Below are positions 5,015-63,453 of a stretch of 64,000 nt of DNA, piece by piece. The position numbers and the translations under genes are program-made. The notes under the pieces were generated by a model, which did not search any database, was not told the DNA's origin, and worked only from the letters and a program-made list of their open reading frames with translations. Origin of the DNA: Candidatus Omnitrophota bacterium. Lineage in GTDB: Bacteria; Omnitrophota; Gorgyraeia; Zapsychrales; Fredricksoniimonadaceae. How positions within the stretch are numbered: the first letter of the stretch is position 1; each line of letters opens with the position of its first letter. The DNA lies in the NCBI GenBank assembly GCA_013286575.1, contig JABDFL010000001.1:9905-73904 (forward strand), read 5' to 3'.

Positions 5015-5122
5015 CAGTTTTTAGTCCTTATTTTATTTCCGCGTTGGCTTTGTTCCCCGGATTCTATCTTTTACTAAATTACCGGGCTTGTCAACGTTTT
5101 TAAAAACAGTTTTTGACCGGCC

Positions 5123-28950: not shown

Positions 28951-29655
28951 ATGCAGAAATTAGAGAAAATATACGAAGGCAAGGCGAAGATCCTTTATAC
29001 GACCGGGGACCCTGACTTGCTCATCCAGTATTTCAAGGATGATGCAACGGCCTTCAATGCCCAGAAGCGAGGTACCATTGTTGAAAAGGGCATCATGAAC
29101 AATGGCATCGCCTCCAAGATCTTTGAGCACCTCAAAGCCAAAGGCATTGAGACCCATTTCGTTGAAAGGTTAAACGACCGCGAGATGTTGGTCAAGCGTG
29201 TCCAAATCGTCCCGCTTGAGATCATTGTCCGCAATCGCGCGGCAGGTTCTTTATGCCGCCTGCTGGGACTGGCTGAAGGGGCCAATTTAGCCTGCCCGAC
29301 GCTGGAATTTTGCTATAAGAATGACGCCTTGGGCGATCCGCAGGTCAATGAATACCATATCCGGGCGTTGAATTTTGCCACTGATGATGAGGTGAAGAAG
29401 ATCACCGCCTTGGCCTTCAAGATCAATGAGGTATTAAAGAAATTCTTTCTGGGTTTAAAGATTGAATTGATCGATTTCAAAATAGAATTCGGCCGCATCA
29501 ACAATCATATTATCCTGGCTGATGAAATCTCTCCTGACACCTGCCGTTTATGGGAAGTCGGTACGGGCAATAAGCTGGACAAAGACCGTTTCCGTCGGGA
29601 TCTGGGTAATATCGAAGAGGCCTATCAGGAAGTATTACGCAGAGTTTCCGCATGA
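28951..29655 (+). CDS. purC: Phosphoribosylaminoimidazole-succinocarboxamide (SAICAR) synthase.
   Basis: 234 aa: YEGKAKILY, LIDFKIEFG. Confidence 0.9.
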   Translation: MQKLEKIYEGKAKILYTTGDPDLLIQYFKDDATAFNAQKRGTIVEKGIMNNGIASKIFEHLKAKGIETHFVERLNDREMLVKRVQIVPLEIIVRNRAAGSLCRLLGLAEGANLACPTLEFCYKNDALGDPQVNEYHIRALNFATDDEVKKITALAFKINEVLKKFFLGLKIELIDFKIEFGRINNHIILADEISPDTCRLWEVGTGNKLDKDRFRRDLGNIEEAYQEVLRRVSA

Positions 29656-32561
29656 TCTGGCGCGTTGAAGTTAAACAAAAAGATGGGATGCTGGATCCCA
29701 TTGGACAATCCATTGCCCGAGACATCATTGATATGGGCTTTGGCATCTCCCAGGTGCGTGTCGTCTCGGTTTTTCTGCTGGAAGGCACCATCAGCCGCGA
29801 GGAAGTCAAGCGCATCGGCGATGAACTCCTGGTTGATCCTATCGTTGAGCAATACAGTTTTGATTTAAAACTCCCCCTGCAGTCAGTTGACCATCATGTC
29901 GTTGAAATAGCTTATAATCCCGGTGTCATGGACCCTGTGGAAGCCTCCACGATCAAGGGCATCCGCGATTTGGGTGTCGCAGGCATCAGTGCTGTGCGCA
30001 CCGCCCGGCAATACCATATTTACGGCAGACTGACAGCCAAAGAATTGGAATCCATCACTGCCCGCGTCTTGATGAATAAACTCATCCAGCACGTGGTAGC
30101 TGACCCTTCCCATGTCCCGACCACACTCAGTATCACGGGTGCATCCGCGTCCAAATTTGATGTGATGATCGTGGATTTGATCGGTGCCAATGATAAAAAA
30201 CTTCTCGAAATTTCCAAGAGCGGCCAGCTCTATTTAAATATTGATGAGATGAAGGCCATCCAGGCCCATTTTAAAAAAGAAAAACGTGATCCGACGGACG
30301 TTGAATTAGAAACCATTGCCCAGACCTGGAGCGAGCATTGCCGCCATAAGACTTTCAGGGGTGTTATCCGTTACCGGGAAGGCAAAAGCGGACGGCCCCA
30401 AATTATCCGCAGCCTTTTTAAAACCACCATTGCTGCCGTTACGTTGAAATTAAAGAAAAAATGGTGCATTTCAGTTTTTCATGACAATGCCGGGGTCATC
30501 GCTTTTGATAAAGATTATCATGTGTGTTTTAAAGTGGAGACCCATAATCATCCCTCAGCCCTGGAGCCTTTTGGCGGGGCCAACACGGGAGTGGGTGGCG
30601 TTATCCGTGATACTTTGGGGACCGGGCTTGCTGCCAAGCCTTTGTGCAATACCGACATATTTTGTTTTGCGCCGCCGGACACACCGGCAGCAGACTTGCC
30701 GCCCGGCACCCTGCATCCCAAGCGGGTCATGAAAGGCGTTGTTTCAGGGGTGCGTGATTACGGCAACAAGATGGGCATCCCGACGGTCAATGGGGCCATT
30801 GTTTTTGATAAACATTTTGCAGGCAATCCGCTGGTTTTTTGCGGCAATATCGGGCTCATCCCCAAAGGTAAAGAAATTAAACGTGTCAGCAGGGGGGATT
30901 TGATCGTGGCTGTGGGCGGACGCACCGGGCGCGACGGCATTCACGGCGCCACGTTTTCTTCGGGAGAGCTGACCAGTGAATCGGAAACAGTTTCTTCAGG
31001 CGCCGTGCAGATCGGCAATCCCATTGAAGAGAAAAAAGTACAGGATGCCCTGCTTAAAGCGCGCGAGGCCAATTTGTATTCTGCCATCACTGATTGCGGC
31101 GCCGGCGGGTTTTCTTCTGCCGTCGGAGAAATGGGCGAAAAGACAGGGGCACGGGTTGATTTGGATAAGGCCCCTCTTAAATATCAGGGCCTTAAATACC
31201 ACGAGATTTGGATTTCAGAATCACAGGAGCGGATGGTGATGTCTGTCCCTCCTCAAAACATCGAAGCCCTTCTTAAGATTTTTGAGGCAGAGAATGTGGA
31301 GGCGAGTGTTTTAGGTGAATTCGACGGCTCCGGCCGCCTGCAACTGTTTTTCCACGGCCAGCAAGTTGCTGACATGGACATGTCCTTTCTCCATGATGGC
31401 CTGCCTCAAATAACCAAGGAAGCTGTTTATCAAAAGCCCAAACTCCGTGTCATTCCCGCGAAAGCAGGAATCCATACAAGATACCGCCCTGGACAGGATT
31501 TAACCGAAAGCTTATGCATGGCCTTAAGCCATTTTAATGTGGCTTCCAAGGAAAGTATTATTCGCATTTATGATCACGAGGTGCAGGGAACAAGCGTTGT
31601 CAAGCCACTGGTAGGGGTTGCCACCGACGGACCATCAGATGCGGCGGTGATCCGCGGGCGTTTGGATTCCAAGCGCGGCATCGCGGTTTCCAACGGCATT
31701 AATGTGCGCTACGGCATGATCGATCCTTTTGGGATGGCTGCTTCCTGCATTGATGAAGCGATCCGTCAAATCATCGCGGTGGGAGGTTCGCTGGATCGCA
31801 TCGCCCTTCTTGATAATTTTTGCTGGGGAAACCCTGATAAGCCCGATCGTCTGGGGTCTTTGGTGCGCTGTGCCCAAGGCTGTTATAAAGCGGCCGTGGC
31901 TTTCGGCACTCCGTTTATTTCGGGGAAAGATAGTTTATATAATGAGTATACCCAAAAAGGTAAAAGCCTCGCGATACCGGGGACCATATTGATCTCCGCC
32001 ATCGGCATCATCGATGATGTGGGAAAAAGCGTCACCATGGATTTTAAAAAGGCGGGGAACAGTATTTATGCGATCGGCACAACCTTTGACGAACTGGGCG
32101 GGTCTGTCTATTTGGAAAATTTAGGGCAGTTGGGGCTTCATGCACCGCAGGTCAATTTTAAGATGGCAGTTAAAACATATAAGGCTGTAGAACGCGCAAC
32201 CAAGGCGGGTTTGATCGCCTCGTTACACGATTGCTCGGAAGGCGGTGCCGCGGTCGCTCTGGCGGAAATGGCCTTTGCCGGCGGATTGGGCGCCACGGTT
32301 TTATCAAAGAAATTGCCCTATAAGGGAAAGCAGGGACGGGAAGATATTTTGCTTTTTTCGGAAAGCAATTCACGCTTCATTGCTGAAGTCTCAGCTGGTC
32401 ATGAAAAAGCGCTGGCAAAGATTTTCAAAGGCGTTCCCATGGCCCGGATCGGCACGGTTGAGGCAAGCCCGGAATTTGTCGTCTACGGTCTTCATGACCA
32501 GCCGGTCATCAATGCCCGTATCGATGAATTAAAAGAAATCTGGAAGGCACCGTTGAGATAA
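29652..32561 (+). CDS. purL: Phosphoribosylformylglycinamidine synthase subunit PurL with an N-terminal PurS-like extension (probable PurS-PurL fusion).
   Basis: 969 aa, against about 740 for a small PurL. The first ~80 aa resemble PurS (VEVKQKDGMLDPIGQSIARDI...). The PurL core starts near WSEHCRHKTF. No separate purS gene is seen between purC and purQ. Confidence 0.8.
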   Translation: MIWRVEVKQKDGMLDPIGQSIARDIIDMGFGISQVRVVSVFLLEGTISREEVKRIGDELLVDPIVEQYSFDLKLPLQSVDHHVVEIAYNPGVMDPVEASTIKGIRDLGVAGISAVRTARQYHIYGRLTAKELESITARVLMNKLIQHVVADPSHVPTTLSITGASASKFDVMIVDLIGANDKKLLEISKSGQLYLNIDEMKAIQAHFKKEKRDPTDVELETIAQTWSEHCRHKTFRGVIRYREGKSGRPQIIRSLFKTTIAAVTLKLKKKWCISVFHDNAGVIAFDKDYHVCFKVETHNHPSALEPFGGANTGVGGVIRDTLGTGLAAKPLCNTDIFCFAPPDTPAADLPPGTLHPKRVMKGVVSGVRDYGNKMGIPTVNGAIVFDKHFAGNPLVFCGNIGLIPKGKEIKRVSRGDLIVAVGGRTGRDGIHGATFSSGELTSESETVSSGAVQIGNPIEEKKVQDALLKAREANLYSAITDCGAGGFSSAVGEMGEKTGARVDLDKAPLKYQGLKYHEIWISESQERMVMSVPPQNIEALLKIFEAENVEASVLGEFDGSGRLQLFFHGQQVADMDMSFLHDGLPQITKEAVYQKPKLRVIPAKAGIHTRYRPGQDLTESLCMALSHFNVASKESIIRIYDHEVQGTSVVKPLVGVATDGPSDAAVIRGRLDSKRGIAVSNGINVRYGMIDPFGMAASCIDEAIRQIIAVGGSLDRIALLDNFCWGNPDKPDRLGSLVRCAQGCYKAAVAFGTPFISGKDSLYNEYTQKGKSLAIPGTILISAIGIIDDVGKSVTMDFKKAGNSIYAIGTTFDELGGSVYLENLGQLGLHAPQVNFKMAVKTYKAVERATKAGLIASLHDCSEGGAAVALAEMAFAGGLGATVLSKKLPYKGKQGREDILLFSESNSRFIAEVSAGHEKALAKIFKGVPMARIGTVEASPEFVVYGLHDQPVINARIDELKEIWKAPLR

Positions 32562-32614: not shown

Positions 32615-33289
32615 ATGACAAAAATAAAAAAACTCGTCACAGTCCCTGATTTGGAAATGATGGAAGACCCCTGGCGCATTTTCCGCATCATGGCGGAATT
32701 TGTCGACGGATTTGAAGAGCTCAAAGACATTGGGCCCGCCGTGAGTATTTTCGGGTCTTCCCGCATCCATACCCTGCATTCCTATTATGACGCGGCAGAG
32801 AAGACCGCGGAATTATTAGTTAAGGCAGGTTATGCGGTGATCACCGGCGGCGGCCCCAGCATCATGGAAGCAGGCAATAAAGGGGCATCCAAGGCAGGCG
32901 GCAAATCCATCGGGCTTAACATTGACCTGCCTTTCGAACAAAAACCAAATGATTATATTAATCATCTGATCAATTTTCATTATTTTTTCTGCCGCAAGGT
33001 CTGTTTTGTCAAATACGCCAAGGCCTTTGTGATTTTTCCCGGCGGCTACGGGACCCTGGATGAATTATCAGAAAGCATCACGCTTATACAGACCCAGCGC
33101 ATGCAGCAATTCCCGGTCATCCTTTACGGAAGCAAGTACTGGAAAGGGCTTTTGGATTGGTTTAAAGGGCCTGTACTCCATGAAGGCTGCATTGATGTCA
33201 AGGATTTGGACATTGTGCAGACAGCGGATAAGCCCGAAGATGTTGTTAAGATCATCAAAAAGTTTTACAGCAAGAAAAAGAAAAAATGA
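32615..33289 (+). CDS. LOG-family protein (TIGR00730; cytokinin riboside 5'-monophosphate phosphoribohydrolase / nucleotide N-glycosidase-like).
   Basis: 224 aa: GGGPSIMEAGNKGA, PGGYGTLDEL. It sits inside the purine operon between purL and purQ. Confidence 0.8.
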   Translation: MTKIKKLVTVPDLEMMEDPWRIFRIMAEFVDGFEELKDIGPAVSIFGSSRIHTLHSYYDAAEKTAELLVKAGYAVITGGGPSIMEAGNKGASKAGGKSIGLNIDLPFEQKPNDYINHLINFHYFFCRKVCFVKYAKAFVIFPGGYGTLDELSESITLIQTQRMQQFPVILYGSKYWKGLLDWFKGPVLHEGCIDVKDLDIVQTADKPEDVVKIIKKFYSKKKKK

Positions 33290-34074
33290 CCCCCAATGTC
33301 AAAGTCATAGTCATTCGCACCGCAGGCACCAATTGCAACGAGGAGACAGCGTTTGCCTTCAGCCGTTTGGGTGCGCATGTGGATCAGGTGCATATCAATG
33401 CTCTGATCGCCGGCACTTTTAAATTAAGCGATTATCATATCCTGGCTTTGCCCGGCGGGTTTAGCTATGGTGATGATATTGCTTCGGGGCGTATTTTGGC
33501 CAATGAATTACGTTTGAAATTGGCAGAGGAGATCAAACAATTTATCCGTGACGGCAAATTAATTATCGGTATATGCAATGGATTCCAGATCCTGGCTAAA
33601 GCCGGTATTTTGCCCGGCCTCGGATGGAAGATTGGACAAGAAACAACGTTGTTCTATAATGATTCTGCCAAATTCGAGGCCCGTTGGGTGCATTTGAAGG
33701 TGGAAAGCCGTTGCGTGTGGACAAAAGGCATGCCCGGCCAGATTTATCTGCCCGTGGCCCACGGCGAGGGAAAATTCATCCCGCGCGAGAAGAAAGTCCT
33801 GGACGCGCTGACAAGTAACGGCCAAATCGTCCTGCGTTATTGCGCTCCTGATGGAAGCAAGCCTGCGTATCCGGAGAATCCCAACGGATCAACCGATGAT
33901 ATCGCCGGCATCTGCGACACCACCGGACGCGTCTTTGGCCTAATGCCGCATCCGGAACGTCATTTTTTATTCGAGCAACACCCATACTGGACACGCTTAA
34001 AGAAAACAAGCGATTTCGGCGACGGAGCCAAGATATTCGAAAACGGCATTAATTACGTGAAGGAAAATTTGTAG
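33286..34074 (+). CDS. purQ: Phosphoribosylformylglycinamidine synthase glutaminase subunit.
   Basis: 262 aa class-I glutamine amidotransferase. GICNGFQ nucleophile Cys and HPE catalytic His/Glu. Confidence 0.85.
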   Translation: MTPNVKVIVIRTAGTNCNEETAFAFSRLGAHVDQVHINALIAGTFKLSDYHILALPGGFSYGDDIASGRILANELRLKLAEEIKQFIRDGKLIIGICNGFQILAKAGILPGLGWKIGQETTLFYNDSAKFEARWVHLKVESRCVWTKGMPGQIYLPVAHGEGKFIPREKKVLDALTSNGQIVLRYCAPDGSKPAYPENPNGSTDDIAGICDTTGRVFGLMPHPERHFLFEQHPYWTRLKKTSDFGDGAKIFENGINYVKENL

Positions 34075-34079
34075 CGCCC

Positions 34080-34120
34080 GTGTCATTGCGAGGAGCCGGA
34101 GGCGACGAAGCAATCTTTTA
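34080..34120. repeat. Hairpin repeat family A (GTGTCATTGCGAGGAGC..GGCGACGAAGCAATCTTTT), copy 1.
   Basis: Begins 6 nt after the purQ stop. There are 5 copies in the window (34080, 34188, 43783, 61928, 63181). Confidence 0.7.
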
Positions 34121-34146
34121 ACACTGTCATTCCTTGGATTTTACAT

Positions 34147-34177
34147 TGTCATTCCCGAATGTTTTTGTCGGGAATCT
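34147..34177. repeat. Hairpin repeat family B copy (GTCATTCCCGAATGTTTTTGTCGGGAATCT).
   Basis: Stem ATTCCCGA/TCGGGAAT. Confidence 0.6.
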
Positions 34178-34187
34178 AGAACAAGTT

Positions 34188-34228
34188 GTGTCATTGCGAG
34201 GAGCTGAAGGCGACGAAGCAATCTTTTT
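34188..34228. repeat. Hairpin repeat family A, copy 2.
   Basis: GTGTCATTGCGAGGAGCTGAAGGCGACGAAGCAATCTTTTT. Confidence 0.7.
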
Positions 34229-34233
34229 AGAAT

Positions 34234-34261
34234 CGTCATCCTGAGCGTAGCGAAGGATCTC
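34234..34261. repeat. Hairpin repeat family C (CGTCATCCTGAGCGTAGCGAAGGATCTC).
   Basis: Only one copy in the window. It shares the GTCAT head with families A and B. Confidence 0.5.
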
Positions 34262-34285
34262 TAAAAGAATGACCTTGTAGCATGA

Positions 34286-40240: not shown

Positions 40241-41482
40241 ATGAAAGCTTATTTGCAGACAGTTGATCCTCAAATTTATCAGTCCATCCAGCATGAGCTT
40301 AAGCGTCAGAAAAACAATCTTGAATTGATTGCCTCAGAGAACATTGTTTCCCCTGCGGTCCTGGAAGCGGCCGGCAGTGTGCTGACCAATAAGTACGCCG
40401 AAGGTTATCCGGCGGCCCGCTGGTATAATGGCTGTGAATTTGTCGACGAGGTTGAAAGCCTGGCTATTGCCCGCGCCAAAGAGCTTTTCGGCGGGGACCA
40501 TGTCAATGTGCAGGCCCATTCCGGTTCACAGGCGAACACGGCCGTGTACCTTTCTGTGTTGACGCCGGGGGATGTGGTCATGGGTCTGGATTTGGCCTGC
40601 GGCGGGCATTTGACCCACGGCCTGAAGATCAATATTTCCGGACGCCTGTATCGTTTTGTTTCATATAAGGTCGACCCAAAAACAGAGCTTATCGATATGA
40701 ACGAGGTCGAGCGCCTAGCTTTGGAACATAAGCCCAAAATGATCGTGGCCGGTTATTCGGCGTATTCACGGTTTTTGGATTTCAAGCGTTTCCGTGAGAT
40801 CGCGGACAAGGTAGGCGCCTATTTATTTGTGGACATGGCCCATTTCGCAGGATTAGTCGCGGCAGAGTTGTATCCCAATCCCGTGCCGCATGCCCATTTT
40901 GTGACCACGACGACACATAAGACCCTGCGCGGTCCCCGTGGAGGGATGATCATATGCAAGGCGGAGTTTGCCAAGAAAATTGACAGTGCTATTTTTCCCG
41001 GCATCCAGGGCGGCCCTTTGATGCACATTATCGCGGCCAAGGCCGTGGCGTTTAAAGAAGCCTTGACCCCGCAGTTTAAACAATATCAAGCCCAAGTGAT
41101 CGCCAATTCTAAAACCCTGGCTAACGCCTTGGCCTCAAAAGGTTTTCGCATTGTGGCCGGAGGGACTGATAATCATTTGTTTATGGTGGATTTACGGCCT
41201 AAAAAGATCACCGGCAAAGACGCAGCCGCCGTACTCGACCGCGTGCAGATAACCGTCAATAAGAATCTGGTCCCCTTTGATACAGAATCTCCGGTGGTCA
41301 CCAGCGGCATCCGTATCGGAACACCGGCCGTCACCACCCGCGGCATGAAGGAAGCCCAGATGCTTAAAATCGCTGATCTGATCGACCGCTGTGTCATTAA
41401 CCGTGACATAGGAACAGAATTAGAAAAAGTCCGTCAAGAAGTAGAGCATTTAGCTCACGAATTCCCGATCTATACGGATTAA
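40241..41482 (+). CDS. glyA: Serine hydroxymethyltransferase.
   Basis: 413 aa: [24 protein letters not shown] (PLP Lys). Confidence 0.9.
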
Positions 41483-41485
41483 AAT

Positions 41486-41980
41486 ATGCGTTGCCCGTCC
41501 TGCGGCTATAAAGGTACCAATGTGATGGATTCGCGCCTCAACAGCGACGGGACATCCATCCGCCGCCGGCGCCAGTGCTCCAAGTGTGAAGAGCGCTTCA
41601 CCACCTACGAGCATATTGAAGAAGTGCCCTTGATGGTCGTCAAGCGCGACGGCCGCCGCCAGCCTTTTGACCGCACGCGCGTGCTCAATGGCCTGATCAA
41701 GGCCTGCGAGAAGCGGCCCATCAGCGTTGAGCAGATTGAAAGCATGGTGGATGATATTGAACATACCATCCGCAAGAAATACGACCGGGAAATTTATTCC
41801 AAAGACATCGGGGAGATGATCATGACCCGTTTGTCCGTTTTAGACGAAGTGGCGTATGTGCGTTTTGCCTCTGTCTACCGCCAGTTCCGCGACGTTAACC
41901 AGTTCATGAGTGAATTACAGACGATCCTGACAAAAAATAAGATCAAAAAGCTTAAAAAGCAGAAAGTTAAAATCAGATGA
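41486..41980 (+). CDS. nrdR: Transcriptional repressor NrdR (zinc ribbon plus ATP-cone).
   Basis: 164 aa: MRCPSCGYKGTNVMDSR...CSKCEERFTTYE. Confidence 0.85.
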   Translation: MRCPSCGYKGTNVMDSRLNSDGTSIRRRRQCSKCEERFTTYEHIEEVPLMVVKRDGRRQPFDRTRVLNGLIKACEKRPISVEQIESMVDDIEHTIRKKYDREIYSKDIGEMIMTRLSVLDEVAYVRFASVYRQFRDVNQFMSELQTILTKNKIKKLKKQKVKIR

Positions 41981-42381
41981 TCCAAGTCGAATTATCCAGA
42001 ATTATCATTGATGAAAAGCGCCAGGACCAGGTGATCGTGCTTAAGGAAAAAGACGGTGAGCGCCAGATCCCCATCGTCATCGGTTTTATGGAAGCCTCCA
42101 GCATCAAGATCAAGATCTCCGGCGTCGACGTTCCGCGTCCCATGACCCATGACCTTTTGGTCGCGGTGATGCAGGTCTTGGGGGCGGGCCTTGAGCGGGT
42201 GATTATTGATAAGCTCGTCAACAACACCTTCCATGCCAAATTGGAAATTAAATCCAAAGACGGCCAGATCAAAACGATCGATTCCCGTCCTTCGGACAGC
42301 ATCGCCCTGGCCGTGCGTTTCAAGGCGCCGATTTTCGTTGCCGATGAAGTCCTGCAAAAATCATCATTGCCCCAATCATGA
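41977..42381 (+). CDS. Bifunctional nuclease family protein (DUF151).
   Basis: 134 aa: PIVIGFMEASSIKI...RPMTHDLL...IDSRPSDSIALAVRFKAPIFV. Confidence 0.7.
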   Translation: MIQVELSRIIIDEKRQDQVIVLKEKDGERQIPIVIGFMEASSIKIKISGVDVPRPMTHDLLVAVMQVLGAGLERVIIDKLVNNTFHAKLEIKSKDGQIKTIDSRPSDSIALAVRFKAPIFVADEVLQKSSLPQS

Positions 42382-43805
42382 TACCGTTGTTTATTTATTA
42401 TCCTCAACTCTCCCTGGTCCGCGACGCGCTTAAGGGCAGCAAGCGCCGTGTGTTCCTGGTCGGAGGCGCCTTGCGCGATTATTATTTAAACCGCCGCGGG
42501 ACTGATTTTGATTTCGCTGTTGACCAGGGGGCCGTTGCCTTGTCCCGCCGATTAGCCCATCAGCTTAAAGCTGCTTTTGTCCTGCTTGACCGCGAGCATG
42601 GCAGTGCCCGTGTCGTCAAAAAGATAGATGGGGTGGTCTGTACTTTTGATTTCACCGATTGGCGGGGCAGGAGCATTCAAAAAGATTTAAATTTGCGCGA
42701 TTTTACCATTAACGCGTTGGCCGTGGATATTTTTGATAAAGACGCTGGCATCCTGGAGGTCAAAGGGTCCCGGCGGGACCTAAAAGCAGGTGTGGTGCGC
42801 ATGGTTTCCCCCCAGGTCTTTAGAGACGATCCTTTAAGGCTTTTACGCGCCTTTACCCTGCAGGCCACCCTTGGTTTTAAGATGGATGCCGGGACAGGCG
42901 TGCAAATCAAAAAAGACGCGCATTTAATTTCCCTGTCAGCTGCGGAAAGGATACGCGAAGAGATTTTTAAGGTATTGGCTTCACCCCGTGCGGCCGCAAC
43001 ATTATCCGCTATGGATAAGATCGGGCTTTTGCCTCAGGTTATCCCGCAGATCACTGTCATGTACGGTGTCCATCAGGGCGGTTATCATCATTTGGATGTT
43101 TGGCGGCATACGCTTGAAGTGCTTGCAAAGGTTGAAAAATTCATCGAAGAGCCGGGCGCTGATGAGCGCATGAAGGCGTATTGGCACCAGCCTATCGGCG
43201 GAGGGCACACGCGCTATGCGCTTTTGAAAATGGCCGCGCTTTTGCATGACGTAGGAAAACCGGAAACCCGGAAGCTTGAGGCGAAGCGCATGACTTTTCA
43301 CGGCCATGAGCATGCGGGCGAAAGGATAACCCGTCAGGTCGCCAAGCATTTGAAATTATCCGTTAAGGAACGTTTTTTTCTGGAAGATGCGGTAAGGATG
43401 CACCTGAGGCCGGGCTATCTGTCAAATTTCAAACGCCCCAGTGAAAAAGCGATATTCCGGTATCTGCGCGACACGAAAGATGAAGCCGTCAGTTTGGCAG
43501 TTCTGGGTCTGGCAGACCAGGCCGCGACATGCGGCCCCTTGACCACCAAAGCCAAGCATAGGCATCATGCTAAAATCTGCCACATGCTCATCGAACGTTA
43601 TTTTGAACTCAAAGACCGGAAGCCCCGGCAACGCCTGCTCACAGGCCATGATTTGATCAAGGTCCTGAAATTAAAACCTTCAGAGCTGTTTGGAAAAATC
43701 CTCTCCGGCATCGAAGAAGCCGCAGCTTTGGGTAAAATAAAAACAAAAGCCGAGGCACTGAATTTGGCTCGACAAATGAATGTGTCATTGCGAGGAACGA
43801 AGTGA
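42378..43805 (+). CDS. cca: tRNA nucleotidyltransferase (CCA-adding enzyme / poly(A) polymerase family) with an HD domain.
   Basis: 475 aa: FLVGGALRDYYLNRRGTDFDFAV. HD motif HDVGK. Its last 8 codons and stop lie inside a family-A repeat. Confidence 0.8.
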   Translation: MIPLFIYYPQLSLVRDALKGSKRRVFLVGGALRDYYLNRRGTDFDFAVDQGAVALSRRLAHQLKAAFVLLDREHGSARVVKKIDGVVCTFDFTDWRGRSIQKDLNLRDFTINALAVDIFDKDAGILEVKGSRRDLKAGVVRMVSPQVFRDDPLRLLRAFTLQATLGFKMDAGTGVQIKKDAHLISLSAAERIREEIFKVLASPRAAATLSAMDKIGLLPQVIPQITVMYGVHQGGYHHLDVWRHTLEVLAKVEKFIEEPGADERMKAYWHQPIGGGHTRYALLKMAALLHDVGKPETRKLEAKRMTFHGHEHAGERITRQVAKHLKLSVKERFFLEDAVRMHLRPGYLSNFKRPSEKAIFRYLRDTKDEAVSLAVLGLADQAATCGPLTTKAKHRHHAKICHMLIERYFELKDRKPRQRLLTGHDLIKVLKLKPSELFGKILSGIEEAAALGKIKTKAEALNLARQMNVSLRGTK

Positions 43806-43821
43806 CGAAGCAATCTTTTTA
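43783..43821. repeat. Hairpin repeat family A, copy 3, spanning the cca stop and the ygfZ-like start.
   Basis: GTGTCATTGCGAGGAACGAAGTGACGAAGCAATCTTTTT supplies the cca C-terminus ...SLRGTK* and the GTG start plus MTKQSF of the next gene. Confidence 0.7.
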
Positions 43822-44443
43822 CAGGCTCCCCGACACCGTTTTTAGCATTAAAGGCAATGCTTCTCAATTCTTAAATGGGATCACTTCCAATACATTGGAC
43901 GCATTGCTCAATGCCTTTTTAAACCAGCATGGCCGCATCATCGCCACCTTTCGCCAGCAAAAAATCAGCGACGATGAATTCCTGATCAGTGTGCCTGTCA
44001 TCGCCGTGGATAATCTATTAAAACACCTGGATCGTTATGCCCGGCTGAGCCACACCCGGATAGAGCAGTCCACTCAGGGTTCTTATATGGATTTGGACAC
44101 CGCCAAAACCGTATGGTCATCACAGCCCCAGACTAACAGTATCAGCGATGAGGAGTTTACACTTTTTCGTCTTGACCATAATATCCCGTTGATGGGTGTT
44201 GATTATCAGGCCGATGAATTTATACTCAACGTGCATGAGTTTGATTATGTTTCTTATACCAAAGGCTGTTTTTTAGGCCAGGAGCCTGTGGCCAAGGTGC
44301 ATAACCGCGCCCAACCCGTTCGCCGTCTGATCACCCAATTTGCCGATCAATGCTCCCCGGAAGATGCCGCCAAAATGACTTCCAAGATCCAGGACCCCGC
44401 AACCGGCCGTCTAAAAGGCTTTGTATTTGTAAGCAATAAATGA
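43802..44443 (+). CDS. Folate-binding YgfZ/GcvT-like protein.
   Basis: 213 aa. KGCFLGQE matches the YgfZ K-G-C-(Y/F)-x-G-Q-E signature. The GTG start is provided by the repeat. Confidence 0.65.
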   Translation: MTKQSFYRLPDTVFSIKGNASQFLNGITSNTLDALLNAFLNQHGRIIATFRQQKISDDEFLISVPVIAVDNLLKHLDRYARLSHTRIEQSTQGSYMDLDTAKTVWSSQPQTNSISDEEFTLFRLDHNIPLMGVDYQADEFILNVHEFDYVSYTKGCFLGQEPVAKVHNRAQPVRRLITQFADQCSPEDAAKMTSKIQDPATGRLKGFVFVSNK

Positions 44444-44502
44444 CCGTAAAATTTATTTCCTCACCCTTGCCCCCTATGGGATAACCAGGTATAATTTAAA
44501 AT

Positions 44503-45603
44503 ATGAGGGAAATAACATCTCCGAGGCCGAAGCAATTGGGCCTTTTAATTAATGCCATGCGGCTGTGCTTATCTATCTTTATATTATCTTTTTTATGCTG
44601 GAGTTTTGATGCCGGGGCCCAGGACCAGGTCCCTGGGCAGCAATTTTCATCATCCGTTCCCTCGCAATGGCAAATGACCCTGGATGAGATCAAATCTAAA
44701 GCACAGAACCTGGTCATTCAAAACAACGGGTTACAGGATGAATACCAGGAGTTAATGGAGTTGGCGCAGAAATTACAGCAGGCGATCGCGGACCAGCAAA
44801 GCAAAAATGAACAGATGGCCCGTTTTATACAAGAGCGGCACGGCCAGACAGACCAGCAGCTGCGTATCGGGGAATTGACCAAGAATATCCGGACAAAAAG
44901 CCAGCGAGTCAGCGTTTATGTTCAGCAATTGGAAAATTTAAACAGGAAACAGGCGGGCCTGGAACATAATATCCAGATGATGAAAGACACGATTTCAAAT
45001 ATAGAATTTCATCAGCAGGCAGAAAAGCATGAAGTCCAACCCTCTCAAAATACAGCGCAGCCCCGGGTTGATGATCAGCTGGTCCCATTGCGCAAGCAGC
45101 TTGAAGATAATATTAAGCAGGAAGTCCTTTTGGGGAATGAACTGGGGGCTTTAAAAGCCGGTGATAAAACAAAGAATTTGAATGCAGGCACCGTCGATTC
45201 GGAAAATAAACAGCTTCAGGCCCGTCTGGATGTTTTGCAGTCACAAATGGTACAGCACGAAAAAGAATCTTCGGACGCGCAAATAGCACAGGCCACGGCC
45301 CGTATGTATGATCACCTTAAAAAACGCAAGGATGAGCTTGAGGCCGACATTTATTCTTATGAGTTGCGCATGGACCAGTTAAGGCAATCTTCCTTGCTGG
45401 CAATATCCTGGCAGTTCAAGAAAAAGAAAATCGTCCACGAAATGGTACAGGCAGATGCCCGCAATAATCAGTTACGCTACAAGATCAAAGTATTGCGTGA
45501 GGACATTGGTGTTTTAAAAGACCAGGTGGCCCAATTAGAGCGCCAGGTGAATGCTGCCGGCCAAAGTAAAGATAACTTCGTCACTTTCAAGACTTCTGAG
45601 TAA
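44503..45603 (+). CDS. Secreted coiled-coil protein (Q-rich).
   Basis: 366 aa with a hydrophobic N-terminal segment (MRLCLSIFILSFLCWSF) and long heptad-like Q/E/L repeats. No catalytic domain. Confidence 0.5.
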   Translation: MREITSPRPKQLGLLINAMRLCLSIFILSFLCWSFDAGAQDQVPGQQFSSSVPSQWQMTLDEIKSKAQNLVIQNNGLQDEYQELMELAQKLQQAIADQQSKNEQMARFIQERHGQTDQQLRIGELTKNIRTKSQRVSVYVQQLENLNRKQAGLEHNIQMMKDTISNIEFHQQAEKHEVQPSQNTAQPRVDDQLVPLRKQLEDNIKQEVLLGNELGALKAGDKTKNLNAGTVDSENKQLQARLDVLQSQMVQHEKESSDAQIAQATARMYDHLKKRKDELEADIYSYELRMDQLRQSSLLAISWQFKKKKIVHEMVQADARNNQLRYKIKVLREDIGVLKDQVAQLERQVNAAGQSKDNFVTFKTSE

Positions 45604-45616
45604 TAGGAGGGTTGTT

Positions 45617-45952
45617 ATGTCCAAAGTCCGTCCAAGCCCGTCGACAACAGTGCGCGCCCTGATCGAAGTGTCGATCACGCCCCAAAAAGATGTCGGTTTT
45701 GACAGCATCGCCGAGCGGATCTACAGTTATCCCGAGGTCAAAAGCTGTTATTTGCTCTCCGGCGGTTATGATTTACTGGTGATCGTCGAGGGGGAAAACA
45801 TTCATACCGTGGCGGATTTTGTGGCCGCGAAACTTTCATCCATGGCCAATGTGCGCCAGACAGCCACGCATTTCTTGCTGCGTAAGTACAAAGAAGAAGG
45901 CCAGGTTTTTAAACATCCTAAAAATGAGCGCAGGCAGAACATATCGTATTAA
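45617..45952 (+). CDS. Stand-alone Lrp/AsnC-type ligand-binding (RAM) domain protein.
   Basis: ATG at 45617 follows AGGAGG. ...EVKSCYLLSGGYDLLVIVEGENIHTVADFVAAKLSSMANVRQTAT is a RAM-domain pattern. No HTH. Confidence 0.55.
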   Translation: MSKVRPSPSTTVRALIEVSITPQKDVGFDSIAERIYSYPEVKSCYLLSGGYDLLVIVEGENIHTVADFVAAKLSSMANVRQTATHFLLRKYKEEGQVFKHPKNERRQNISY

Positions 45953-45964
45953 GGGATTTATATA

Positions 45965-47116
45965 ATGAGAATTTCCAAACGTGTTGATCAATTGGCCCCC
46001 TCAGGCATCAGGGCTTTTTTTGATTTAGTACTGGGCATGAAGGACGTCATCTCCTTAGGTGTCGGAGAGCCGGACTTTGTTACCCCCTGGCATGTGCGGG
46101 CGCGTGCCATCGAATCCCTCGAACAAGGCTACACCTCGTATACTTCCAACAAAGGCATGATTGAGCTGCGGCGGGACATTGCGGCATTCCTGAAAAAACG
46201 CCACCAGATTGACTATGACCCTGAAGAGGAAATTTTAATTACTGTCGGCGTCAGTGAGGCCCTGGATTTGGCGATGCGGGCCATCCTTAATCCCGGCGAA
46301 AAAATATTGGTTCCCGAGCCCTGCTATGTGGCATATGGCCCGGTGGTGGAATTGGCCGGCGGGGTACCGGTATTCTTAAAGACTTCCGTTGAAACCGGTT
46401 TTAAAGTCACCCCGCAACAGATCGATGAAGCCGCGGGCCGCGGGGTGCGCGGTATCCTGCTTGGTTATCCGTCTAACCCGACAGGCACTTCGTATAACAA
46501 AAAAGAACTGGAAGCGATCAGCCGCGTCGTTAAGAAACACGATATGCTGGTCATTAGCGACGAGCTTTATGATGAGTTAACGTATGATTTTGAACACACC
46601 CCGATGGCCACACTGCCCCAGATGCGGGACCGTGTCATCTATCTTAACGGTTTTTCCAAGAGTTACGCCATGACAGGGTTTAGGATCGGCTATGTTTGCG
46701 GGCCCGCGGACCTGGTAGGCGCCATGACCAAGATCCATCAGTACACCATGTTATGCGCGTCGATCACCGGCCAGATGGCGGCCATTGAGGCTTTAAAGAA
46801 TTCCGCCGCGGACGTGCAGGCCATGAAAAAGGAATATGACCGCCGCCGCCGTTTTATCGTCGGTGCTTTAAATGACATCGGGATGGCCTGCCATATGCCG
46901 CAGGGTGCTTTCTATGCATTCCCGTCGGTAAAAGTGTCAGGGGAGAGCTCGATGGATTTTGCCAAGAATTTATTATTGAAGCAAAAAGTGGCCCTGGTGC
47001 CGGGGGTTGCCTTTGGCCGGTGCTGTGAGCAGTTTGTGCGGATCTCGTATGCGTCAAGCTATGACAATTTGAAAGAAGCTGTCGCCCGCATTGAAAAATA
47101 TTTGAAAAAGAAATAA
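45965..47116 (+). CDS. PLP-dependent class I/II aminotransferase (aspartate-aminotransferase-like).
   Basis: 383 aa: SLGVGEPDF, YPSNPTG, NGFSKSYAMTGFRIGY (PLP Lys). Confidence 0.8.
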   Translation: MRISKRVDQLAPSGIRAFFDLVLGMKDVISLGVGEPDFVTPWHVRARAIESLEQGYTSYTSNKGMIELRRDIAAFLKKRHQIDYDPEEEILITVGVSEALDLAMRAILNPGEKILVPEPCYVAYGPVVELAGGVPVFLKTSVETGFKVTPQQIDEAAGRGVRGILLGYPSNPTGTSYNKKELEAISRVVKKHDMLVISDELYDELTYDFEHTPMATLPQMRDRVIYLNGFSKSYAMTGFRIGYVCGPADLVGAMTKIHQYTMLCASITGQMAAIEALKNSAADVQAMKKEYDRRRRFIVGALNDIGMACHMPQGAFYAFPSVKVSGESSMDFAKNLLLKQKVALVPGVAFGRCCEQFVRISYASSYDNLKEAVARIEKYLKKK

Positions 47117-60433: not shown

Positions 60434-61713
60434 ATGCCCTCACTTATCTAAACTCCTTTGTTAATTTTGAATCCCAGCTCCATAAACTGGGCCCTGAAGA
60501 TTTTAGCCTCAACCGCATTGAAAAGTTTTTGGATTTGGCCGGAAACCCGGCCAAGAATTTAAAGATCATCCATGTCGCAGGCACTAAGGGCAAGGGATCA
60601 ACCTGTGCGTTTTTAGCCGGTATTTTGCAGGAGGCCGGCTACAAGGTAGGGTTATATACCTCGCCGCACTTGCACAAGGTCAATGAACGTATCCGTATTT
60701 TAAATGCGGAGAATATCCGCTCCAAAGATGATTTTTGCGGCTCAATCAGCGACGATGAATTAGCTTCGGTGCTGGCCCAAATACGCCCTTTTGCCGCTGC
60801 CATCCAGAATGAGGGTAATATCCTTACCTATTTCGAAGTCCTGACAGTGGCGGCCTTGTGTTATTTTGCCAGGGCATGCGTGGACGTGGTCATTTTAGAA
60901 ACCGGTTTGGGCGGCCGTCTGGATGCGACCAATGCGGTTGATTCCTTAATTGCTGTGATCACACCGGTCAGTCTGGACCATGTCCGTATACTAGGCAATA
61001 CTTTAGGTAAAATAGCGGCAGAGAAGGCGGGCATTATAAAAGATTCCCGCCAGCAGGCCGTGATTGCTCCTCAAGAAAAAGAAGCCATGGATATTTTACT
61101 TCAACGTTGCCGGGAGTTTGGTGTCCATCCGGTCCTGGTCAATTTGGAAAAGTATAAAAATTTGAAAATCGGCCTTAAGGGCACGCATCAAAAGATCAAT
61201 GCCGCGACCGGCCTGGAAACGGTGGGGATTTTAAAGAAAATGGGGTTTCACATCAGTGATAAAGCGATCAGTGACGGATTAATTAATGTCCGTTGGCCCG
61301 GCCGTTTTGAATTATTGCATCAGGCGCCGGATGTGATCGTTGATTGCGCGCATAATGAAGCTTCTGCCCGGGCCTTGGCCCAGACCTTGAAGGGGGAATA
61401 TCATCAGCGACGGGTGATTTTAGTGCTGGGAGTCTCCCAAGACAAAGACGTGAAGGCCATTTGTTATTCTTTAAAGAATAGTGTAGCGCATATTATCCTG
61501 ACCAGGGCCGGCCATCCCCGGGCCCACTCTTTTAAGGAAGCAGAAGGTAAGGACTATTTTGGGGGGAAATCTTTTGAGATCATGGAAAGCCTGCCTCAAG
61601 CGCTGGAAAAGGCCCTGCAGCAGGCAGGCCCGCAAGATGTGATTTTAGTAACAGGTTCTGTTTTCGTAGTGGCAGAAGCAACGGAGTTCTTATGTACCAA
61701 TATAAAGGCCTAG
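60430..61713 (+). CDS. folC: Folylpolyglutamate synthase / dihydrofolate synthase.
   Basis: 427 aa: HVAGTKGKGST, ILETGLGGRLDATN. Confidence 0.8.
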   Translation: MNALTYLNSFVNFESQLHKLGPEDFSLNRIEKFLDLAGNPAKNLKIIHVAGTKGKGSTCAFLAGILQEAGYKVGLYTSPHLHKVNERIRILNAENIRSKDDFCGSISDDELASVLAQIRPFAAAIQNEGNILTYFEVLTVAALCYFARACVDVVILETGLGGRLDATNAVDSLIAVITPVSLDHVRILGNTLGKIAAEKAGIIKDSRQQAVIAPQEKEAMDILLQRCREFGVHPVLVNLEKYKNLKIGLKGTHQKINAATGLETVGILKKMGFHISDKAISDGLINVRWPGRFELLHQAPDVIVDCAHNEASARALAQTLKGEYHQRRVILVLGVSQDKDVKAICYSLKNSVAHIILTRAGHPRAHSFKEAEGKDYFGGKSFEIMESLPQALEKALQQAGPQDVILVTGSVFVVAEATEFLCTNIKA

Positions 61714-63176
61714 AAGACACGATTGCCGCCATTGCGACTCCTGCCGGACAAGGCGGGATCGGCATTGTGCGTATCAGCGGTAAGGATGCGATTACGGTCG
61801 CGGATGCGGTGCTTCGTCTTCAAGGGGACAAATCATTAGCGCAGTGCAAGAGCCATACGGTCCATTATGCCCGTGTCATTAGTCCCAATAGTGTCAAAAG
61901 GCCCAATAGCATCGACGTCGCAGAGTTGTGTCATTGCGAGGAGCGTTTTCCAGCGACGAAGCAATCTTTTTTGAAAAATGAAAATATCATTGATGAAGTT
62001 TTAGTAACATTGATGAAAGCACCAAAAAGTTACACCGCCGAAGACGTGGTCGAAATCAATTGCCACGGCGGCATGACTGTCCTGCGTGCGGTGCTTGAAG
62101 AAGTCTTGTCCGCAGGAGCGCGCCCGGCAACTCCGGGAGAATTCACCAAACGGGCCTTTCTTCATGGCCGTATGGATTTGGCCCAGGCCGAGGCAGTGAT
62201 TGATATCATCCAGGCACGGACTTCAAACTTTTTACGCCAGAGCCAGCATCAATTAAAAGGGGAATTATCGATCCAGCTTAATGCCATACGCGCAGAGTTG
62301 ATCAAGCTTTATACGATGGTAGAGGCATTGATTAATTTTCCCGAGGATGGCATTGACGCCCAAGGCCGTCAGCAAATTTTAGACCGCATCAGTATTCAAG
62401 AGAAGGGTATCGCTAAACTGTTGAAATCCTCCGAGAGCGGCCGTATCCTTAAAGAAGGCATACGCATCGTCTTATGCGGCAAGCCCAATGTAGGCAAATC
62501 TTCTTTACTGAACGCTCTTCTCAAAGAACAGCGCGCCATTGTCACCAATATCGCCGGCACCACCCGCGATGTCCTGGAAGAATCAGCGCAAATCAAAGGC
62601 ATTCCCATTTCATTAGTCGACACCGCCGGTATTTTGGAACCAAGGGATCTCATTGAAAAGGAAGCCATATCACGCAGCCATCTTTACATCAAAGGCGCTG
62701 ATCTGGTATTTTTGGTGCTGGACCATAGTCACCCGTTAGAAGAGCAGGACAGGCTGCTGATGCAGCAATTAAAAACCGCCAGGGTTTTGGTCGTAGTTAA
62801 TAAAATAGATTTAGAGGGCAAGATAGACCTGTCAGTGCCCAAAGGAATATTCGGCCCGGAGCATGTGATAGAAGTTTCAGCGCTTGAACCTCAATCCATG
62901 CAGGGCCTGGAAGCAAAGATCGTTGATTTGATCCTCAAGGACAAAGATCTCGATACCCACGGCATTCTGGTCAGCAATGTCCGTCATGTTAAGGCATTGG
63001 AAGAAGCGCAAAGAAACCTGCAAGACGCCGTCCGCCTGATGGACCAAAACACTTCCCTGGAATTTATCTCCGAAGAACTAAAAAGCGCCGTCAACCAGTT
63101 GGACGCCATCACCGGCCGCAACATCGACGAAGACCTCCTGGACCGCATCTTTTCCGAATTCTGTATTGGAAAATAA
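61692..63176 (+). CDS. mnmE: tRNA modification GTPase MnmE (TrmE), with a repeat-derived in-frame insertion in its N-terminal domain.
   Basis: 494 aa: IAAIATPAGQGGIGIVRISG, G-domain GKPNVGKSSLLN, DTAG, NKID, C-terminal CIGK. The N-terminal domain carries an extra segment (...ELCHCEERFPATKQSFL...) encoded by a family-A repeat. Confidence 0.85.
   Translation: MYQYKGLEDTIAAIATPAGQGGIGIVRISGKDAITVADAVLRLQGDKSLAQCKSHTVHYARVISPNSVKRPNSIDVAELCHCEERFPATKQSFLKNENIIDEVLVTLMKAPKSYTAEDVVEINCHGGMTVLRAVLEEVLSAGARPATPGEFTKRAFLHGRMDLAQAEAVIDIIQARTSNFLRQSQHQLKGELSIQLNAIRAELIKLYTMVEALINFPEDGIDAQGRQQILDRISIQEKGIAKLLKSSESGRILKEGIRIVLCGKPNVGKSSLLNALLKEQRAIVTNIAGTTRDVLEESAQIKGIPISLVDTAGILEPRDLIEKEAISRSHLYIKGADLVFLVLDHSHPLEEQDRLLMQQLKTARVLVVVNKIDLEGKIDLSVPKGIFGPEHVIEVSALEPQSMQGLEAKIVDLILKDKDLDTHGILVSNVRHVKALEEAQRNLQDAVRLMDQNTSLEFISEELKSAVNQLDAITGRNIDEDLLDRIFSEFCIGK
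61928..61972. repeat. Hairpin repeat family A, copy 4, in-frame inside mnmE.
   Basis: GTGTCATTGCGAGGAGCGTTTTCCAGCGACGAAGCAATCTTTTTT translates as (E)LCHCEERFPATKQSFL. Confidence 0.7.
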
Positions 63177-63180
63177 GTGT

Positions 63181-63223
63181 GTGTCATTGCGAGGAGGCGT
63201 AGCCGACGAAGCAATCTTTTTAC
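63181..63223. repeat. Hairpin repeat family A, copy 5 (GTGTCATTGCGAGGAGGCGTAGCCGACGAAGCAATCTTTTTAC), just after the mnmE stop.
   Basis: Same head and tail as the other copies; the central segment is variable. Confidence 0.7.
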
Positions 63224-63257
63224 GCTCCACGCCATCTAGGGCTGACGCTGATATATT

Positions 63258-63286
63258 TTGACAACCTCACTCAATGCGAGTAGACT
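63258..63286 (+). promoter_or_regulatory. Candidate sigma70 promoter: TTGACA, 17 bp, TAGACT. It would give a ~160-nt structured leader ahead of the radical SAM gene.
   Basis: The predicted leader contains the hairpins CCCCGAAC-gttta-GTTCGGGG (63332-63352) and GCCGCACC-gcag-GGTGCGGC (63376-63396). Confidence 0.35.
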
Positions 63287-63453
63287 TGCGTTTATTCGGG
63301 TGTTGTGTTTTCTTCGAAGGTAGTAGAAGGCGGTCCCCGAACGTTTAGTTCGGGGAAAAGCAGCCTGGTGACTAGCGATGCCGCACCGCAGGGTGCGGCG
63401 AGCGTGCCTGAGAAGAAAATACAATGCCTGAATATATGCGTGAGTAGGTGAGT

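Follow-up and report, generated by a model that had tools for sequence, protein, structure and literature searches.

In this study, we analyzed a 64,000-nucleotide stretch of DNA from a Candidatus Omnitrophota bacterium (contig JABDFL010000001.1 of assembly GCA_013286575.1, positions 9,905 to 73,904), referred to as the window, and in particular the junction between cca and the gene downstream of it, which encodes a ygfZ-like folate-binding protein. This junction coincides with one of five window copies of a dispersed repeat (family A) that resembles a repetitive extragenic palindromic (REP) element. Positions are those of the window, and the features of the junction are as follows.

42378..43805, + strand: cca, encoding a tRNA CCA-adding enzyme (nucleotidyltransferase with an HD domain); 475-codon open reading frame (ORF) and Pfam
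43782..43821 (40 nt), + strand: junction copy of the dispersed REP-like repeat, GTG-TCATTGCGAGGAACGAAGTGACGAAGCAATC-TTTTTA; repeat families D1/D4/D6, pattern match and alignment with other copies
43783..43786, + strand: TGTC 5' tag of the junction copy, a variant of the CGTC tag
43787..43791, + strand: outer-stem left arm ATTGC, partner of GCAAT at 43810-43814 and conserved in all copies
43792..43796, + strand: GAGGA, a conserved repeat motif, here Shine-Dalgarno (SD)-like and 5 nt upstream of GTG 43802
43797..43803, + strand: degenerate inner mini-hairpin AC-GAA-GT (GNA triloop)
43802..43805, + strand: GTGA, 4-nt overlap of the GTG start of the ygfZ-like gene with the TGA stop of cca
43802..44443, + strand: ygfZ-like folate-binding protein gene (213 aa), with its first six codons (MTKQSF) derived from the repeat
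43810..43814, + strand: outer-stem right arm GCAAT, inside codons 3-5 of the ygfZ-like gene (AAG CAA TCT)

The cca-ygfZ junction

Read directly, the window sequence at 43780-43829 is atGTGTCATTGCGAGGAACGAAGTGACGAAGCAATCTTTTTAcaggctcc. The cca ORF ends in ...ARQMNVSLRGTK / ...LARQMNVSLRGTK, with the TGA stop at 43803-43805 and the C-terminus NVSLRGTK, the last seven codons (VSLRGTK) and the stop being encoded by the repeat. The ygfZ-like ORF starts with GTG at 43802-43804 and reads GTG-ACG-AAG-CAA-TCT-TTT, giving the protein N-terminus MTKQSFYRLPD, MTKQSFYRLPDTVFSIKGNASQFLNGITSN. A first-pass annotation of this DNA had proposed that a repeat copy straddles the junction, that one of its frames yields the CCA-enzyme C-terminus NVSLRGTK-TGA and another MTKQSF, that stop and start overlap by 4 nt (GTGA), and that the TKQSF frame is also translated inside mnmE. 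Each of these proposals was borne out: a 40-nt copy lies at 43782-43821, both ORFs read as described and share GTGA at 43802-43805, and the mnmE ORF (61692-63176) reads ...ELCHCEERFPATKQSFLKN... through the copy at 61930-61966 in that same frame.

Pfam domains PolyA_pol, PolyA_pol_RNAbd, HD and tRNA_NucTran2_2 were detected in the cca product, and its best NCBIfam matches were CCA tRNA nucleotidyltransferase models, every one of them under the equivalog cut-off. The product of the downstream gene scored 47.0 bits against TIGR03317 (cut-off 49) and 19.8 against Pfam GCV_T (cut-off 25.6), and close homologues are named YgfZ by JGI; the label ygfZ-like is fair for the product of 43802-44443. In the window, the ancestral cca tail, its stop codon, the ygfZ ATG and codon 2 are all missing, and the repeat stands in their place. 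Its inner stem is reduced here to 2 bp, the most degenerate among the five window copies. From the sequence, the repeat very probably supplies the stop of cca together with the start, the SD motif and the first residues of the ygfZ-like gene.

GTG 43802 as the start of the ygfZ-like gene

A homologue search with the YgfZ-like protein found 511 sequences, nearly all of them from Omnitrophota metagenome bins, and N-termini were compared for 120 listed of the 511. An MRLYKLPD-like (M-R-L-Y-K-L-type) N-terminus was present in 88 of these 120, and the LYKLPD block lay within about 20 residues of the start in 112; the remainder comprised the window's own protein, P0002 (MRLYKLAD, not caught by the motif) and six more, five of which were truncated gene calls. 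Among the 120, an (M/V)TKQS N-terminus was found only in the window's own protein (P0001) and in P0021. The ATG of the orthologues aligns with codon 4 (CAA) of the ygfZ-like ORF, within the repeat.

No ATG, GTG or TTG occurs in the window sequence between GTG 43802 and Leu32 (TTG, codon 32), which is the next possible start downstream. The intervening residues G18, A20, F23, L24, G26, S29 and N30 are invariant or nearly so in the YgfZ-like family and are intact in the window. Because these near-invariant residues precede Leu32 and no start codon does, translation must begin at or before 43802. Upstream of GTG 43802 there is no canonical start, the frame opening only at 43736. On these grounds, GTG 43802 is the sole workable canonical start of the gene. 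The NCBI and JGI gene calls chose the same starts, placing P0001 at 213 aa and giving P0021 and the locus L075 a 4-nt overlap.

The junction in related Omnitrophota

Orthologous loci were taken from genome and metagenome collections and their junctions were read by sequence. The adjacency of cca and ygfZ, within a 10-gene synteny, is kept in dozens of relatives. Where the repeat is absent, cca ends in LARQMVKK, LARKMIK, LAKSIKK, LARKISKG or LARKLIKK followed by the stop, and the junctions read ATGA (L005/L057, L021, L051, L055), TAATG (L058, L063), TAAATG (L007) or TAA-nn-ATG (L001, L053), these boundaries thus being already tight or overlapping. The window cca, ending in LARQMN-VSLRGTK, is about five residues longer. 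The repeat or its remnants were found at this junction in at least six lineages, i.e., the window and the following.

L059: clean 33-nt in-frame filled site versus the empty site in L001, with the cca tail SVIARSQATKQSLKN followed by the stop; own ygfZ ATG kept
L050: cca stop is a TAG in the repeat loop; own ygfZ ATG kept
L061: intergenic repeat copy within an array; own ygfZ ATG kept
L045: decayed copy GTGTCATTTCAAAGAACGAAGCAACGAAATC; ancestral ygfZ start region TTGAGATTATACAAACTCCC kept downstream
L048/L076 and L075: exact window architecture, with cca ending in ...LARQMTVSLRGLT followed by the stop and a GTGA overlap; repeat GTG start (VTKQSLYKLPD)

The first-pass annotation had regarded the insertion as co-opted, a view that the clean empty and filled sites of relatives support. 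It had also pointed to two observations that would tell against it, namely a downstream ygfZ start conserved among orthologues and a cca C-terminus of equal length in relatives without the repeat; no such start is usable in the window, and the cca products of those relatives end about five residues earlier.

The L048/L076 contig and L075 derive from two different metagenome samples and both encode the identical protein P0021; in L048/L075, GAGGA lies at the same spacing from GTG as in the window. Between the window and L075, all 32 arm bases (15 + 17) are identical and the loop differs at three of six positions, against 76-80% identity in the coding DNA that flanks the copy. The decayed L045 copy has the loop GAACGAAG in common with the window copy; it has lost both arms and serves neither as stop nor as start. 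A protein search with the cca C-terminus returned 24 fragments, none of which was a further GTGA case; it added a few decayed tails (P0141, SIITRSKVTKSKG; P0127; P0128), and judged from these tails, more lineages possibly have junction copies. The tail of L064 (KSIR-TGA-ATCT) was considered as a repeat remnant and rejected, as each of its codons has its counterpart in ordinary KMIK-TGA tails.

Other rearrangements were observed at the same boundary. In L004, L047, L052, L056, L065, L067, L068 and L071, cca lacks a stop before the ygfZ ATG and runs 10-30 nt into ygfZ in another frame (an example tail being ...LAKNAIIQTS, followed by the stop), so the boundary is evolutionarily labile even without the repeat. 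P0142 resembles a cca-ygfZ fusion or a frameshifted gene call. Inserts of about 200-230 nt lie between cca and ygfZ in L006 (5812-6010) and L008/L069 (5765-5995); they resemble miniature inverted-repeat transposable elements and contain long internal inverted repeats, e.g., GATGACGAAGCTGCTATTCTATTTTCGAAAC ... GTTTCGAAAATAGAATAGCAGCTTCGTC. In L061, the gap (4868-4990) holds two tandem copies of a different unit of about 45 nt, GTGTCAAAAGGCTT[TG]AGCC[AG]TACGT[TA]CTTCGACGTC[AG]TTAGGTTT, and then a family-A copy, with GTGTCA opening all three repeat units.

Copies and structure of the repeat

The pattern GTCATTGCGAG-N(8-24)-GAAGCAATC matched five times in the window, always on the + strand, and had no match in any of 100 shuffles. 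The copies start at 34082, 34190, 43784, 61930 and 63183; those other than the junction copy are the following.

34080..34125, + strand: copy 1, 8 nt past the stop of ORF 33286-34074
34188..34233, + strand: copy 2, within an intergenic array of GTCAT-type hairpins
61928..61975, + strand: copy 4, translated in frame inside mnmE (LCHCEERFPATKQSF)
63181..63226, + strand: copy 5, beginning about 5 nt past the mnmE stop

All five window copies read GTGTCATT at the 5' tag, and the layout common to family copies is GTG-TCATTGCGAG...GAAGCAATC-TTTT(T)A, i.e., the TGTC tag, an outer stem ATTGC/GCAAT, a GA-rich internal loop (GAGGA / GACGAA), a variable inner stem and usually a GNA triloop. The inner stem covaries (GCC/GGC, GGC/GCC, GCCC/GGGC, TCCCGCC/GGCGGGA), the inner hairpins of other copies including GCC-GGA-GGC, GCT-GAA-GGC and GGC-GTA-GCC, and a central GNA triloop was present in 95 of 189 distinct family copies. 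In 61 long-form copies, the four bases before GAAGCAATC were CGAC (49), TGAC (6), GGAC (5) or AGAC (1). The usual family sequence here is GCGAC and that of the junction copy GTGAC; a single C>T change thus yields the stop TGA for cca and, in the frame of ygfZ, the start GTG. A head-to-head REP dimer was found in frame inside cca of another Omnitrophota metagenome-assembled genome (L010, 5270-5360; GVIASPANGGTKQSFKRSPRPLQGLAMTHF), the second unit of which shows a compensatory outer-stem change, ATCGC/GCGAT. The mnmE copy sits in a 32-residue insertion in the N-terminal domain (residues 64-95) relative to the solved MnmE structures 3gee and 1xzp; about 19 residues of this insertion are unaccounted for by the repeat.

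Besides the five family copies, the window contains four related GTCAT-hairpin-ATC units.

31449-31472, + strand: classic CGTC-1/dRS3-like unit GTCATTCCCGCGAAAGCAGGAATC, read in frame as VIPAKAGI in PurL (PurS-PurL fusion ORF 29652-32561)
32571, + strand: GTCAT-hairpin unit GTCATCCCCGA...CGGGGATC
34148, + strand: GTCAT-hairpin unit GTCATTCCCGA...CGGGAATC
34235, + strand: GTCAT-hairpin unit GTCATCCTGAGCGTAGCGAAGGATC

Of these nine hairpin units, three follow a stop codon by no more than 10 nt, three fall in coding sequence and three belong to the intergenic array. The array (34076-34262) begins 8 nt past the stop of ORF 33286-34074 and comprises at least four GTCAT-hairpin-ATC units in direct orientation, i.e., two family-A copies, the GTCATTCCCGA...TCGGGAATC unit and the GTCATCCTGAGCGTAGCGAAGGATC unit; it has the look of a site where several REP families nest. 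The nine GTCAT-type hairpins of the window all lie on the + strand, which also carries 49 of the 55 long ORFs; this bias could reflect transcription (an RNA-level role) or replication-strand-specific insertion of single-stranded DNA. A separate repeat, family D2, consists of a 121-nt unit present twice in tandem, with 81% identity, at 2439-2685 inside the 974-codon ORF 1744-4668.

A scan of the window at Rfam 15 gathering scores returned two tRNAs and no family for the repeat. Permissive Rfam matches over the repeat array (GA-cis at 15.2 bits versus 34.7, and two small nucleolar RNA models), with E-values of about 1 or above, were rejected as chance. An intrinsic (Rho-independent) terminator, for which a G+C-rich stem of 5 bp or more and a 3-8 nt loop immediately before a T-run would be expected, was likewise rejected as a reading of the hairpin and its T-run, no copy having been called in scans of 41000-46000 and 61500-64000; this reading is further weakened by folds no more stable than those of shuffles and by the tolerance of copies inside mnmE and cca. 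Likeness of GAGGA...GACGAA to hammerhead, k-turn and sarcin-ricin motifs was assessed by eye and rejected, the registers being off consensus and the sarcin-ricin similarity of one copy lying in the variable loop. Searching the literature for the strings CATTGCGAG / GAAGCAATC returned primers and irrelevant matches only.

Copies in viral contigs

Scanning IMG/VR for the core TCATTGCGAG-N6-30-GAAGCAATC identified at least 120 viral or proviral contigs (L077-L196). Several copies per contig were frequent in the listed contigs, and inverted (+/-) pairs 20-30 nt apart were common. In 180 copies from the listed contigs, the base before TCATT was G in 99% and the base before that was T in 54%; the commonest core was CGNAGC, giving GCGNAGC with a GNA triloop. 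The oligonucleotide d(GCGAAGC) is a classic, very stable DNA mini-hairpin. In the phage contig L172 (4528-5130, - strand), a near-identical copy, GGAACGGAGTGACGAAGCAATCT, offers a GTG that extends a 179-codon ORF (4528-5067, - strand). This contig was considered as a third repeat-supplied start and rejected, since an internal ATG before a signal peptide (MKTLKLVF...) is the likelier start, and it thus serves as a negative control for repeat-derived starts.

Translation signals and coupling

Two further genes precede cca in the same operon.

41486..42381, + strand: nrdR (41486-41980) and a bifunctional-nuclease-domain (BFN) gene (41977-42381); Pfam

The nrdR/BFN and BFN/cca junctions are both ATGA 4-nt overlaps, and 4-nt overlaps are therefore found at three successive operon junctions. 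An SD-like 4-5-mer at -4 to -18 was present in just 18 of 52 window genes and GAGGA in two, including the ygfZ-like gene, whose GAGGA is among the best SD matches in the window. In the predicted fold of the junction copy, GUCAUU (43784-43789) pairs with AGUGAC (43801-43806), at -6.8 to -7.9 kcal/mol. Among 14 overlapping gene pairs tested experimentally in other work, 13 were strictly coupled and the SD often mattered; local structure was proposed as a block to de novo initiation at such pairs (Huber et al., 2019, PMC6728339). From the 4-nt overlap and this precedent, coupling of cca and the ygfZ-like gene by termination-reinitiation is, in our judgment, somewhat likely. Ribosomes ending cca at UGA would reinitiate at the overlapping GUG with the assistance of GAGGA, and the weak repeat hairpin may partly hide the start site from free ribosomes. 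GTGA would in this way recreate the ATGA-type coupling of the two preceding operon junctions and of cca-ygfZ in several relatives.

The strongest competing account accepts that the repeat gives stop and start, but has ygfZ initiated de novo at GAGGA-N5-GTG, the overlap being incidental. In its favor are an SD match of this quality at optimal spacing, a weak hairpin, and bioBF as a precedent, i.e., the one tested pair of 14 that initiated de novo (PMC6728339). Nevertheless, we consider it rather unlikely, since the start codon and some of the SD region fall inside the predicted stem, 4-nt overlaps recur along the operon, stop and start already overlapped or nearly did so at the ancestral junction, and the other 13 tested overlaps were strictly coupled (PMC6728339).

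It is less probable still, and on balance unlikely, that the copy is kept for an ordinary REP role (protection of the mRNA 3' end, tuning of cca termination, or as a transposase or structural target), with the stop and start as a tolerated by-product. The complete identity of the arms between the window and L075, against about 78% in the flanks, fits such a role, being the pattern seen in every family copy regardless of its location. Other copies do lie 5-10 nt after stop codons, as uni-REPs do (PMC3733652), and translation can be modulated by REPs located up to 15 nt from a stop codon (PMC12306157). The junction copy, however, has the most degenerate inner stem among the window copies, the arms of the L045 sister copy, unneeded for stop or start, have decayed, and homogenization with other copies would erase GTGA, which yet persists in two lineages.

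That GTG 43802 is not the real start appears highly improbable; in that case translation would begin at TTG codon 32, or the gene would be in decay, and the repeat would simply lie next to it. Many REPs at ORF N-termini are annotation artefacts (PMC3733652), and L172, where the GTG of a near-identical repeat extends an ORF, is a concrete case. Unlike L172, the ygfZ-like gene has no alternative start before codon 32 and keeps the family's near-invariant residues in that interval; its ORF is full length and 75-84% identical to orthologues, and GTGA is kept in a second lineage. Finally, an assembly artefact that joined contigs wrongly through a shared multi-copy repeat, conceivable as the window comes from a metagenome-assembled genome, can be set aside almost entirely, given that the repeat is just about 40 nt, that adjacency and synteny recur in dozens of relatives, and that two other samples (L048/L076 and L075) independently yielded assemblies with this architecture.

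Evolution of the junction

The present junction may have arisen in three steps: an in-frame insertion of the repeat into the tolerant cca tail; a C>T change in the family's usual GCGA, which would have created stop and start together (GTGA); and a deletion of about 14-15 nt between the T-rich tail of the repeat and ygfZ codon 3 (TTA), which would have fused the GTG frame to codon 3. In a ten-protein, 2757-column supermatrix, the window and L045 were paired at 95% bootstrap, the only grouping resolved, while L075 was placed elsewhere, with L050/L064 at 65-74% on little data. A three-protein tree of single versus multiple origin gave no resolution, all bootstraps being below 41%. Since L045 retains the ancestral start region, the window lineage lost the ancestral start after its split from L045. 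By comparison of these loci, loss of the ancestral ATG then looks independent in the window and L075 lineages, with the repeat GTG taking over each time, unless recombination transferred the junction. Recombination between these lineages was considered and found no support, identity by segment showing no spike beside the junction; ancient exchange is still conceivable.

Several frames are open in the canonical repeat unit, which contains GAGGA and needs a single C>T to give GTGA. We therefore raise, tentatively and at less than even confidence, the possibility that the repeat is a pre-adapted, portable stop-SD-start cassette and that takeover of the junction happened more than once. If so, the presence of copies or remnants at this junction in at least six lineages would point to tight gene boundaries as an insertion hot spot, or to a very old copy that has been remodelled again and again.

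Several points weigh against our interpretation. The rare non-canonical start ATT 43787 is formally conceivable, and the organism is known from metagenome assemblies alone. The order of the evolutionary steps is a reconstruction, and an 8-nt difference in the left flank between the window and its sister L045 complicates a simple path. In stability the junction hairpin does not exceed shuffled sequence (z = +0.77), so that any masking of the start would be weak, and as only about a third of the window genes have an SD-like motif, it is uncertain how much the SD matters in this organism. Taking these points into account, we still consider it likely that a REP hairpin was inserted into the tight cca-ygfZ boundary and has since been exapted as the boundary itself, including its coupling.

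Comparison with known systems

The CGTC/TGTC-tagged REP superfamily was described by Di Nocera, De Gregorio and Rocco (2013, PMC3733652) and includes Neisseria dRS3 and Rickettsia conorii RPE-4/RPE-6. The unpaired 5' tag is CGTC, or else TGTC or CCTC, with CGTC altered to TGTC in many repeats; these elements have stems opening with AT, short tails, sites just past co-oriented ORFs and in-frame intragenic copies, and no dedicated transposase is known for them (PMC3733652). Similarly, an unpaired TGTC 5' tag is present in five of five window copies and in all copies in related Omnitrophota loci, the stem opens with A-T and T-A pairs (ATTGC...GCAAT in every copy), and the repeat is multi-copy and dispersed, lying just past co-oriented ORFs and in some cases in frame within genes. 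Families CGTC-1 to -4 are defined by a contiguous 8-9 bp stem, a 4-5 nt loop and a 3' tail with the consensus CCA (PMC3733652), whereas the repeat described here has a bipartite stem (5 bp, the GAGGA/GACGAA internal loop and a 2-7 bp inner stem), usually a 3-nt GNA triloop, and a tail of C then TTTT(T)A in the Omnitrophota copies or C then T/C in the viral-contig copies. Its stem, loop and tail thus exclude it from all four described families. In contrast to the head-to-head dimers of CGTC REPs, the window copies are co-oriented singletons with no inverted pairs, a dimer being found in L010 and pairs in viral contigs. Omnitrophota are missing from the phyla listed for CGTC REPs in 2013. From its sequence, the repeat is at most a new family of the CGTC/TGTC superfamily, which it would extend to Omnitrophota, with the bipartite-stem, GNA-triloop design widespread in environmental and phage contigs.

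Like the ATGA/TGATG pairs shown to be coupled (PMC6728339), cca and the ygfZ-like gene are co-directional, overlap by 4 nt (-4), have an SD inside the upstream gene and a structure at the restart site; unlike in those pairs, the start is a GTG in place of ATG, and every element derives from a mobile repeat and none from the sequence of the genes themselves. Rickettsia palindromic elements (RPEs) form N-terminal decorations expressed in vivo, according to work cited in PMC3733652. As with RPE-1 and its relatives, palindromic repeats are translated in proteins of the window (MnmE, PurL and both junction ends); RPE-1, however, is about 100-150 bp and unrelated in sequence, compared with about 40 nt here. 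We know of no RPE case in which one unit forms an overlapping stop and start between two genes, and a literature search found none.

REPs at ORF N-termini are usually dismissed as mis-annotation, and a junction from which the native start is gone is a useful counter-example. It is inadvisable for start-codon callers to trim repeat-derived N-termini automatically. The comparative evidence, and not annotation alone, shows that two conserved housekeeping genes can have their native translation signals taken over simultaneously by a REP-type repeat. If a parallel origin is true, repeats of this kind would time and again give rise to new gene boundaries in compact operons. Stop-codon donation by REP ends and the presence of REPs within ORFs are documented (PMC3733652), and Coxiella QMITE1/2 overlap gene 3' ends and supply stop codons (PMC5896051). 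Searches of the open-access literature did not find a case in which one REP unit gives two conserved genes their stop, SD, start and terminal residues and the native start is gone; the supply of stop, SD and start together is new, whereas stop-donating and in-frame REPs were already known. Thus, as in GTAG REPs, which donate TAG stops (PMC3733652), and in Coxiella QMITE1/2, the end of a repeat gives the last residues and/or the stop of a functional gene, but unlike in those systems, where one gene is affected, the junction copy also gives the next gene its SD and start, the ancestral start having been lost.

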